IMG/VR virus record: IMGVR_UViG_2565956613_000007
Direction: 5' to 3' (one strand)
Source of the DNA: a virus
Lineage: Duplodnaviria > Heunggongvirae > Uroviricota > Caudoviricetes
DNA: 23,585 nt
In this document: positions 21,565 through 23,585 of the stretch, in pieces
Layout of the letters: every line of letters begins with the position of its first letter
How positions within the stretch are numbered: the stretch's first letter is position 1
The notes under the pieces: generated by a model
Seen by the model: only the letters and a program-made list of their open reading frames with translations
The model's database searches: none
Told to the model about the DNA's origin: nothing
Position numbers and translations under genes: made by a program

Positions 21565-22515
21565 ATGAATGTTTTTATTGATACAAATCTATATTTAGAA
21601 TTTTATCGAATGGGTAAGGATAAACTAGATGAGCTAGATAAAGTATTTGCCTTACATCAATATGGTCGTTTAAAACTTTGGTTGCCAGAACTTTTAGTGA
21701 ATGAGTTCTGGAGAAATCGTTCTAAAGTTCTCTCTGAAACCATAAAGGAAATTGCAAAAGACTACAAGCCCGCGCTACCACAGATTTTCAGACAGCATGA
21801 AAAACATTCACTATTTAATGATAAGGTTATAGAAGCTAGTCGGCTAAAGAATGAAATTATTACCGATATACAGAACTTATTTAAAGAAGAGTCTTTAGCT
21901 GCCGATGTTGTAATTAAAAGGATTTTTGATGCAGCGTCTAAGATAGAGGCTGATGATGAAACAATAGAAAAGGGGAAACGCCGATTCGATCTTGGCAACC
22001 CTCCGGGTAAAAATAAATCATATGGTGATGCAGTCAATTGGGAGTGTTTGCTAAAAGCGATACCAAACGGAGAGGATATATACATTATAACTGAAGATGG
22101 TGATTATAAAAGTGCCTTTATAAAGGATGATATGAATGAGTATTTGAAGTACGAGTGGAAAAAGAAGAAAGATTCAGAACCACATATCTATGCCCGCTTA
22201 TCAGAGTTTATAGGCGAGCACTTTCCTCAAGCCAGTAACTTAGCGGAAATGGAAGTTAATTTCACTATAGATGAATTACGCCGCTCAGGCAGTTTTGCCA
22301 CAACACATCGAGTTGTAGCAAAGTTATTAAAATTCAATCATTTTACACAAGAGCAAATCCTAAAAATAATCGATATCTATTTTAATAATGATCAGGTTGG
22401 CTTCATTAAAGATGATGATGATGTAAAACTACTCGCCAGAAGACTAATATCACTTGGTGACGAGGATAAAGATCCTGAAGGGATGCTTGAGCCATTCCGT
22501 GTATTTATTGATTAA
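21565..22515 (+). CDS. PIN-like nuclease-domain protein (316 aa) in an AT-rich acquired cassette; candidate defence/abortive-infection effector
   Basis: ATG with AGGA 6 nt upstream. N-terminal beta-strand with Asp (MNVFIDTN), then LPELLVNEF, DLGNPPGKNKSYGDAVNW and IYIITEDGDY, a spacing of acidic residues typical of PIN-like folds. Codon usage and base composition are visibly AT-rich, unlike the flanking genes. Confidence 0.7.
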   Translation: MNVFIDTNLYLEFYRMGKDKLDELDKVFALHQYGRLKLWLPELLVNEFWRNRSKVLSETIKEIAKDYKPALPQIFRQHEKHSLFNDKVIEASRLKNEIITDIQNLFKEESLAADVVIKRIFDAASKIEADDETIEKGKRRFDLGNPPGKNKSYGDAVNWECLLKAIPNGEDIYIITEDGDYKSAFIKDDMNEYLKYEWKKKKDSEPHIYARLSEFIGEHFPQASNLAEMEVNFTIDELRRSGSFATTHRVVAKLLKFNHFTQEQILKIIDIYFNNDQVGFIKDDDDVKLLARRLISLGDEDKDPEGMLEPFRVFID

Positions 22516-22557
22516 TTAATGTAATGGGCGTGGGCGCATAGTTAGCGCCCAAGAAGT

Positions 22558-23199
22558 TTAAAGATAATTATCTCTGCCGGTTAATGAACCTTGAGGCACT
22601 TTCCGTGCGGTCATTTCATGAGTAGCTTGAATTATATTCACAAGGGAGCTTAGTAACGAAGGTTCTTGGCGGGTATCAATTTCTCCAGCCATTGCCCTGA
22701 TGTAGTCGGAGCTTGCAACGTTGTTGTATTCCGTTGCGAAGCAGCATAACAACGTCAGAACGTGCTCTGTCGTTATTTCGCTCCAGTTGATGTTGAAAAA
22801 TTCATCGCCTTTTTTGTCATGTTCGGAATCGAAGATGCTTTGGTGGAGGATGTATTTGCCGGATTCTTTGCGCGGTAACTTGATCGCTTTCTGGCGTTCC
22901 AGCTCCTTGTAAATCTGCATTGCTTCAATCAGTACCGGCCTGCCGTTCATGAAGGGATCGCGCAACCTTACACGCTGGCCAACTCGACCAGTAATAAAGC
23001 TGTTTTCCTCTTCCACCAGCACGATAAAACCCTTTTCCTCTTTTTCTCGCAATTCGCGCAGCAGCTGGAGTTCCATGTCGCGGCGGCGTTCAGGGTAGCT
23101 GGTACGCTCAGCCATTATCAGCTCGTTGTTGATCCATGCAGCAGTCATTGACGCCGGTTTGCCGACGCTCATCGAAACAACGCATATTTTCTTATCCAT
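22558..23199 (-). CDS. Hypothetical protein (213 aa from the preferred start)
   Basis: Preferred start ATG at 23199 with SD AGGGGG; the track start at 23346 lacks signals and would lie upstream of the putative promoter element. Glu/Arg-rich helical segment ELQLLRELREKEEKG. Convergent with the PIN-like gene. Balanced G+C, so probably a phage backbone gene. Confidence 0.55.
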   Translation of the reverse strand: MDKKICVVSMSVGKPASMTAAWINNELIMAERTSYPERRRDMELQLLRELREKEEKGFIVLVEEENSFITGRVGQRVRLRDPFMNGRPVLIEAMQIYKELERQKAIKLPRKESGKYILHQSIFDSEHDKKGDEFFNINWSEITTEHVLTLLCCFATEYNNVASSDYIRAMAGEIDTRQEPSLLSSLVNIIQATHEMTARKVPQGSLTGRDNYL

Positions 23200-23330
23200 A
23201 GCGCCCCCTACAAAAAAGAAAAGCCACCAGCGGCGGCTTAGCAATACAACAGAAGGTAGCGCCCGGTACTCAGACTGTGCCGTCCATGGAATATTTGAAA
23301 AGGGATCCATCCGTACCGGGCGTGTGATGA

Positions 23331-23350
23331 TTCTGACTGAAGTCACTTGT
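23331..23350 (-). promoter_or_regulatory. Putative late-promoter element (ACAAGTGA core) upstream of the 22558..23199 gene
   Basis: Seen in sequence: the minus strand reads TTGACAactgACAAGTGActtcagTCAGAA, about 130 to 150 nt upstream of the ATG at 23199. Confidence 0.35.
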
Positions 23351-23459
23351 CAGTTGTCAATTATTTATTATTAAAAATAATATATTTATTAGTGCATACA
23401 AATAAGGCACTAAGTGTGCACATTGCAACCTCAGAGAGGAAACATTCAACTAGATTGTT

Positions 23460-23476: not shown

Positions 23477-23585
23477 GATTTATTGAAACAAATAAACTAC
23501 TATTGGACGCCAGACTATTGATCTTCCTGTTGTTCAGGCTTATAGTTCCTACGTCGTAGCAAATTCTGCGACCGGGTTTAGCAGC

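Follow-up and report, generated by a model that had tools for sequence, protein, structure and literature searches.

The mat gene of a P1-like phage-plasmid: a 213-aa product and a probable structured leader RNA with a predicted terminator

The stretch of DNA considered here, IMG/VR record IMGVR_UViG_2565956613_000007 (the window, 23,585 nt in its entirety), carries a gene that we take, with virtual certainty on sequence grounds, to be mat, the particle-maturation gene of P1-like phage-plasmids. Its minus-strand open reading frame (ORF) spans 22558..23346 when read from the outermost start, a GTG that would give 262 aa, and contains two further in-frame starts, ATG 23310 (250 aa) and ATG 23199 (213 aa). 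The evidence as a whole is best explained, in our view with good probability, by a mat gene with a product of 213 aa and an untranslated, structured leader that contains a terminator. The gene, its leader and its promoter all lie on the minus strand, and all positions are those of the window. The relevant features are as follows.

22558..23199, minus strand: coding sequence (CDS) of mat, maturation control protein, 213 aa and stop; assigned by homology, by the Prokaryotic Genome Annotation Pipeline (PGAP) and by the profile phrog_1837.
22558..22628, minus strand: mosaic 3' end of mat, the last ~23 codons and the stop; homology to P1 begins only at 22629.
23204..23209, minus strand: Shine-Dalgarno (SD) sequence AGGGGG; anti-SD duplex of -9.3 kcal/mol, G run polymorphic (four or five residues, G4/G5).
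23212..23239, minus strand: predicted intrinsic terminator, from a terminator scan; stem AAGCCGCC/GGUGGCUU at 23239-23221, loop GCU, U tract UUUUCUUUUUU reaching 23212.
23240..23259, minus strand: variable linker from junction to terminator, 54-61% identical between lineages.
23260..23322, minus strand: predicted three-way junction of the leader RNA, from an RNAalifold consensus and pair counts; no Rfam match.
23200..23323, minus strand: whole 5' leader, ~124 nt, reaching from the predicted start of transcription up to, but not including, the ATG; based on the annotated -10 and a covariance model.
23330..23360, minus strand: dual promoter Pmat/LPmat, the same as the features annotated in P1 and P7.
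23381..23398, no strand assigned: C1 repressor operator Omat, ATGCACTAATAAATATA, mapping to 2628-2645 of the P1 record.

The identification as mat rests on nucleotide identity, on the annotation of mat, Pmat, LPmat and Omat in P1, and on a shared neighbourhood. In a megablast search of phage genomes, window positions 22629-23397 are 96.6% identical to the mat region of phage P1, and the matches to P1, P7, RCS47, SJ46 and others lie at 95-97% identity; the two coordinate systems are related by window = 26026 - P1 coordinate. The profile phrog_1837 (212 positions) matches with an E-value of 6e-110, residues 1-213 falling on profile positions 1-212, and while PHROG 1837 is itself labelled "unknown function," the cluster names of the homologues read 'maturation control protein'. 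The P1 gene order darB-ulx-lxc-[slot]-mat is preserved, with mat in its backbone position between the cre/ref side and the res-mod slot, and the res/mod genes of P1 are replaced by a PIN gene exactly as in phage JL22. A preliminary description of this DNA had regarded the function of the gene as unknown and had proposed a comparison with the gene next to res in P1; that comparison leads to mat, a gene for which a genetic phenotype is known and a dual promoter has been published. The same description had rightly placed the gene in convergent orientation beside an AT-rich cassette, which consists of a PIN_12 gene (21565-22515) with a GC content of 0.33-0.39 as against ~0.50 in the flanks. The primary paper on mat is reportedly that of Lehnherr and colleagues from 2001. 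In the literature mat is listed as essential (citing Lehnherr et al., 2001), and its knock-down by CRISPR interference (CRISPRi) gave an efficiency of plating (EOP) of 0.28.

Upstream of mat, the control elements annotated in P1 and P7 recur, such that the window, as far as sequence can tell, possesses the same dual control region, with a C1 operator, sigma-70 -35 and -10 elements and an Lpa -22 box. The -35 element TTGACA (23360-23355) coincides base for base with the annotated -35 of P1 Pmat, as ACAAGTGA (23349-23342) does with the annotated -22 box of P1 LPmat; the Lpa -22 box proper, AAGTGACTT, occupies 23348-23340, and the two promoters share a -10, CAGAAT, at 23335-23330. All of these elements are conserved in an alignment of the upstream regions of related loci, and the predicted transcription start, ~23323, falls 7 nt after the annotated -10. 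Omat is annotated in the P1 record as a monovalent C1 operator controlling mat, and it is within this operator and the end of ref that homology to P1 ceases, at 23397. A promoter inside the N-terminal extension of the long ORF had been suggested earlier. The TTGACA and the ACAAGTGA on which this was based are present and belong to the mat promoter annotated in P1, but the -35 lies upstream of the long ORF. As a minor observation, direct repeats (TGACAAC/TGACAAG) run over the -35 and the Lpa box (23340-23360), and contig L057 carries an extra copy.

Several independent features of the sequence make it very likely that ATG 23199 is the true start of mat. The preliminary description had correctly noted that the longest ORF begins at 23346 and had settled on ATG 23199 because of the strong SD in front of it, although it overlooked the in-frame ATG 23310, which its promoter argument does not exclude. 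The SD (23209-23204) lies 4 nt upstream of the ATG, and its anti-SD duplex, at -9.3 kcal/mol, is among the strongest 1.3% of all 20-mers of the window; the corresponding values are -3.0 kcal/mol at ATG 23310 and +0.7 kcal/mol at GTG 23346. In protein alignments the same methionine (MDKKIC, or M-x-x-K-I further out) stands first in every relative, whether 98% or as little as 27% identical, and the two relatives that have been called with longer ORFs bear extensions with no relation to the one in P1. When 1.8 billion representatives were searched with a profile, 144 family members came out, nearly all of 200-225 aa, and the 37 that were aligned all start with M-x-x-K-I. Moreover, of 95 related loci, 41 close the frame upstream of ATG 23199 after 23 codons and 38 leave it open over 46 codons or more, and what distinguishes them is one G more or less in the run GTAGGGG(G)CGCT. 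JL22 and SJ46, both isolated phages, have the closed (G4) form, in which ATG 23310 is out of frame with mat, and more distant lineages show frame-breaking indels, of 1 nt and larger, within the supposed extension. PGAP uses exactly the 642-nt CDS (213 aa) in near-identical plasmids, as did the annotators of RCS47 and SJ46, so the short start was, like the gene itself, already known. Finally, among 68 distinct P1-like sequences, 68 of the 91 variable sites in mat nt 1-495 fall at third codon positions, whereas 23321-23272 has no variable site and the whole junction only four, a pattern contrary to that expected of a coding extension. Homologue starts, SD energy, frame closures and variation pattern thus all favour the 213-aa protein, as had been proposed.

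The earlier account, in rightly preferring the shorter start, missed that the would-be N-terminal extension is itself a conserved RNA element. We consider it likely, from comparative sequence analysis, that the leader is a structured RNA that is not translated. Lineages that share 67-75% identity in their mat DNA share 76-81% in the junction, and the consensus fold, obtained with RNAalifold on an alignment of 19 leader variants, consists of a closing stem of 10 bp (23322-23313 with 23269-23260), a helix P2 (UGGA/UCCA, ~23309-23306 with 23290-23287) capped by a conserved, pyrimidine-rich 15-nt loop (UCCCUUUUCAAAUAU), and a helix P3 of 3 bp (GGC/GUC, 23281-23279 with 23275-23273). Base-pair covariation is evident in this alignment: 97.8% of the cells are paired, a share that falls to 36-44% once the 3' partners are shifted by 1-3 columns, and four closing-stem pairs have changed on both sides (C-G/U-A, G-C/A-U, U-A/C-G and A-U/G-C, with the A-U to G-C change found in eight sequences). 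The core of the closing stem is broken in two cases, both at loci with a mat pseudogene, and its outermost pair is unpaired in six sequences. Approximately 43 cells are G-U pairs on the mat-sense strand, which would be A-C mismatches on the opposite strand, and the fold therefore belongs to the mat-sense RNA. Each lineage, when folded alone by minimum free energy (MFE), yields the same junction and terminator.

The element is also tied to a single position. Its core motif is present in 106 viral contigs, in each of them a single time, and wherever the locus was read it lies 67-86 nt before the mat start; a covariance model of the leader finds a single copy each in P1 and in a complete relative of 98.8 kb, always before mat. 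No second copy was detected with this model, and its weak hits in distant relatives matched the terminator part only. The covariance models of Rfam 15 gave nothing meaningful on 23200-23330 at E-values up to 10; their sole real hits, c4-a1b1 and isrK, fall at 23540-23585 on the opposite strand. Three considerations temper the case for a structured leader: its thermodynamic z-score alone is unremarkable (-1.44), the covariation derives from only ~5 independent lineages, and the shuffle control is one that related sequences can exceed.

Downstream of this covarying domain, between the predicted transcription start and the ATG, the sense strand carries a GC-rich hairpin and a U tract, that is, AAGCCGCC-GCU-GGUGGCUU followed by UUCUUUUUUG, with an 8-bp stem and a 3-nt loop, ending 2 nt before the SD. 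This terminator is present in every P1-like lineage, and seven of its pairs are kept in all 19 leader variants, while the loops vary. Within the same region (23204-23222), the SD G run (G4 and G5 in about half of the related loci each) and the terminator U tract vary in length among near-identical elements. The arrangement suggests a mechanism in which transcription would begin at ~23323 from a promoter combining C1-repressed sigma-70 activity with Lpa-dependent late activity. The first ~124 nt would remain untranslated and would form the three-way junction, then a Rho-independent terminator abutting the SD. Most Pmat/LPmat transcripts would stop at about +111, yielding an RNA of ~111 nt, and only the RNAs that read through would encode Mat. 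In this manner the leader may set or gate the amount of Mat, and the invariant junction and loops would be the likely site at which some factor tunes read-through.

Whether the leader is indeed a transcription attenuator we judge, from these sequence features, to be an even question. Weighing against it is the fact that the transcription start, termination and read-through are predictions, as is any regulation through the junction. Lineage-by-lineage folds disclosed no conserved antiterminator or alternative helix, and the predicted pairing partner of the SD differs between lineages; for these reasons the attenuator is rated no higher, and any switch would be hypothetical. In addition, a clade with proteins beginning MINKKIC (~41% identity) is without the U-tract terminator. 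The leader with its terminator appears to be new, having no Rfam family, no annotation in the P1 record or in the others examined and no mention that we found in the accessible literature, outside which lies Lehnherr et al. (2001), a paper that may hold transcript mapping.

Two alternatives would have the leader region translated. In the one, the product of mat would have 250 aa (from ATG 23310) or 262 aa (from GTG 23346), and the conserved stretch would encode its N-terminal domain. The long frame is indeed open in the window, P1, P7 and RCS47, some gene callers give proteins of 250-262 aa, and the curated P1 and P7 records annotate 753 nt and 250 aa, corresponding to ATG 23310, which counts against the shorter form; the conserved product in the window and in all relatives is nonetheless the one of 213 aa. 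The open frame carries no weight, as the other two frames over the extension contain only 0-1 stops and the long frame is open because the region is poor in stops. Beyond the 41 of 95 loci, JL22 and SJ46 included, in which it is closed or shifted, the extension is unconserved as a protein in relatives, shows a substitution pattern that is not codon-like, and would place a terminator hairpin and its U tract inside coding sequence. Neither individual candidate fares better. The start at ATG 23308..23310 (minus strand, 250 aa) has no SD, falls out of frame in G4 variants, encodes a peptide unconserved in relatives, and belongs to the 5' strand of helix P2, at a distance of 13 nt from where the transcript is predicted to start; that at GTG 23344..23346 (minus strand, 262 aa) has no SD either and sits within the promoter between the -35 and the -10, and is consequently absent from the Pmat/LPmat transcript. 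A long product has, in sum, a very slight probability, and the curated 250-aa form and the 262-aa GTG ORF are, on this comparative evidence, very probably artefacts of a stop-poor leader. In the other alternative, a short leader ORF from AUG 23310 would be translated through the terminator, suppressing termination or coupling into mat in the manner of pyrBI. In all P1-type variants examined, and likewise in the L094/L144 lineage, such an ORF crosses the terminator; that of L174 ends with a UGA lying 2 nt ahead of the mat ATG; and the first six codons are alike (M-x-[L/P]-F-[S/P]-[N/K]). With so few stops in the neighbouring frames, however, an open ORF is to be expected from base composition, and this one ends at differing places and in differing frames in close variants, has no SD, and begins at an AUG buried in helix P2, while constraint on the RNA sequence accounts for the likeness of its first codons. 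We regard it as very improbable.

The remaining alternatives accept an untranslated region and differ as to what is conserved in it. Because 23260-23322 is so extremely conserved, loops included, and adjoins operator and promoter DNA, it could be a site acting at the level of DNA, for protein binding, recombination or replication. Against this stand the compensatory changes that keep the 10-bp helix, the many G-U pairs tolerated on the mat-sense strand only, and the location of the junction, wholly downstream of the promoter and followed by a strand-specific terminator; such a site is hardly to be credited. A stronger contender, though still an unlikely one and partly overlapping with attenuation, is that the terminated RNA of ~111 nt is the main product, a stable small RNA (sRNA) acting in trans or together with Mat, and mat a by-product of read-through. 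The RNA is built as enterobacterial sRNAs of the Hfq type usually are, with a helix starting 2-3 nt from its predicted 5' end and, at the other end, a terminator hairpin followed by a U tail; its loops and junction are conserved beyond the need of a mere attenuator, with no variable site over 50 nt, and the pyrimidine-rich P2 loop resembles an anti-SD seed. The leader element is, on the other hand, always tied to mat, and when the complete 98.8-kb relative (NZ_CP142921.1) was scanned for trans targets, host targets not being searched, exact complementarity of 12 nt or more did not exceed the chance level, and the matches reached only 12-13 nt. More doubtful still is the proposal that the ~111-nt RNA is a functional phage RNA recognized by a dedicated factor, possibly Mat itself, as part of a feedback or antitermination switch or of a maturation ribonucleoprotein. 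Mat comes into question here for its most conserved segment, which is rich in arginine (GRxGxRxRLRD) and sits on a fold of a nucleic-acid-binding kind. If the proposal were true, the leader RNA and Mat would form a new class of riboregulator in P1-like phage-plasmids, with an architecture kept down to ~30% Mat identity.

A further question concerns the relation of mat to the cassette beside it. The preliminary description had offered two readings, a backbone gene bounding the variable slot on its right side and a partner of the PIN-like gene. DNA containing mat is found in 776 plasmid records, and the adjoining gene varies: the cargo consists of res/mod in P1 and P7, PIN_12 in the window and JL22, and elsewhere GNAT, SIR2, DUF2971, EAL with HTH, or RelA/SpoT (in SJ46). 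On this genomic evidence mat is a backbone gene at the right edge of the slot and no partner of PIN, since its neighbour varies across these records. As a functional partner, be it an antitoxin, a regulator or a second defence component, Mat is exceedingly improbable. The two genes are convergent with a gap of only 42 nt, and the type of C-terminal tail that Mat has in the window is found only with the PIN cassette; but mat occurs with at least seven different cargos, distant relatives have none of them and carry mat at the head of a baseplate operon, the gene has its own phage-cycle promoter, and Mat has no match in PADLOC. No consistent co-occurrence of mat and the PIN gene was found when tested. 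The description had itself held that clear identity to a known backbone gene would speak against partnership, and P1 mat is such a gene, so that partnership is already refuted as far as genomics can do so.

The linkage between tail and PIN cassette is explained by a recombination breakpoint inside mat. The C-terminal ~45 aa of Mat fall into discrete types, that of the window occurring only with the PIN downstream cluster (six distinct sequences), and this exclusive association puts the edge at which the slot recombines within the 3' end of mat. Unlike P1, JL22, with its PIN cargo, matches throughout 22558..22628, and GC content drops across this segment; the last ~23 mat codons of the window are accordingly of the JL22, PIN-linked type and not of the P1 type. 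Two observations bear on the cassette and the gap alone. The C-terminus of the PIN gene product has a weak match to the PADLOC candidate system PDC-S34 (E 1.4e-11), and the 42-nt gap (22516-22557) holds the inverted repeat GGGCGC-N7-GCGCCC; neither strand has a U tract there, and the repeat may be a bidirectional transcript-end hairpin.

Deeper relatives place mat in a different setting. In elements whose Mat is 27-72% identical (L094, L090, L227, L228, L230, L231), mat opens a baseplate operon, ahead of a gp25-like wedge protein and then PHROGs 1722, 1906 and 1767. Three of these lineages (L090, L227, L228), at 27-40% protein identity, have an intrinsic terminator immediately before the mat SD, and the MFE fold of L228 (31% identity) follows the same plan, with a long closing stem around two hairpins, one of 5 bp that carries a 13-nt loop and one of 3 bp. 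In P1-type elements mat stands apart from the baseplate operon, from which we infer that a rearrangement split mat and its leader from the baseplate genes. The P1-type baseplate operon lies elsewhere (NZ_CP142921.1, 95055-98310), with its own C1 operator and late promoter and no leader; the leader is therefore tied to mat and not to late operons generally.

Among known systems, the same gene, flanking backbone, C1 operator, -35, -22 box and -10 are those of Mat in P1 and P7 (formerly gene 1; PHROG 1837). The leader invites two further comparisons. In the lambda pR'-6S RNA-tR' module, a promoter-proximal terminator of the late operon is read through by Q. The mat region likewise has an intrinsic terminator within ~110 nt of its promoter, ahead of a morphogenesis gene, and in distant mat relatives the terminator stands ahead of a whole baseplate operon; the mat leader RNA, however, is itself conserved and covarying, of which lambda 6S RNA has no need, and the element stays with mat and not with the late operon. 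We know of no Q-like antiterminator in P1, whose late transcription is, to our knowledge, activated by Lpa. With riboswitches and protein-binding attenuators the mat leader shares a closing helix and two hairpins, an invariant junction and loops, a variable linker, and a terminator before the SD, but, in contrast to leaders of the riboswitch type, no conserved antiterminator was found in it; it also has no Rfam match, and its P3 measures only 3 bp.

Searches of Pfam, NCBIfam and PADLOC with the Mat protein gave no match, nor did Pfam for 21 family members; a PDB sequence search returned only NusG (E 0.33), which we treated as noise, and hhalign of Mat against P1 PacB gave a probability of 0.4%, that is, no similarity. 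An AlphaFold2 model built on 21 sequences has a mean predicted local distance difference test (pLDDT) score of 79.2, with most of residues 1-160 at 77-92, and its Foldseek hits among the viral models of BFVD are mostly large subunits of terminases; an earlier, weaker model gave the same ranking. The predicted fold is RNase H-like alpha/beta of the terminase type, as would suit a gene whose name refers to particle maturation. Mat nevertheless does not qualify as a member of the nuclease family, since strand 1 (K-I-C-V-V-S) has no acidic residue in 37 of 37 family members (from alignments, not structural superposition), there is no ATPase domain, and no profile similarity to PacB is seen. The catalytic acids, including the Asp of strand 1, are not in place: G131 is the only invariant residue, and only the [DE][DE] pair after strand 4 is general among the 37 family members. 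Neither a sequence-profile link nor an ATPase fusion was found. In comparison with the nuclease domains of large terminases (T4 gp17, G20c, SPP1 G2P, P22 gp2, HK97, human cytomegalovirus (HCMV) UL89), Mat thus stands alone, with neither ATPase domain nor strand-1 acid. It counts against the fold assignment that it rests on a predicted model of 21 sequences and that no sequence-profile method links Mat to terminases. Judging from the model, Mat is probably a stand-alone alpha/beta protein with a terminase-nuclease-like fold that is no canonical nuclease. Separately, residues 64-81 (window ~22957-23010) form the most conserved segment of the close family, the arginine-rich E-E-N-S-F-I-T-G-R-x-G-x-R-x-R-L-R-D, which had low confidence in the first model and is folded into short strands in the later one; the segment may offer a surface for binding nucleic acid.

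Phage P1 serves as a reference and as a standard tool for transduction and Cre-lox recombination, and the P1-like phage-plasmids, which are widespread, carry resistance and defence genes. What appears to be new at mat is the evidence that the curated 250-aa form is an artefact, the leader with its terminator, and the fold assignment. The reference annotation of mat in P1 and P7 is very probably 37 codons too long, which affects constructs, knock-downs and proteomics. A leader with a terminator would add a layer of control after initiation to a gene with unusual dual promoter control, and could explain weak phenotypes when mat is interfered with in screens. The terminase-nuclease-like fold, if correct, would be the first structural lead to the meaning of "maturation control." These results are testable and should be useful to P1 specialists; they are not surprising in kind and do not change the general view of phages.

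Beyond the operator, the window departs from P1, as ref is replaced upstream of mat. In the nearest plasmid (NZ_CP142921.1, 99.6% identical), an icd and KilAC-antirepressor module stands in place of ref, and three icd/ant modules are present in all. At the end of the window, on the plus strand, 23540-23585 matches the Rfam family c4-a1b1 (C4 antisense RNA targets; 42.5 bits, E 2e-9) as well as isrK, both matches being clipped by the window end.

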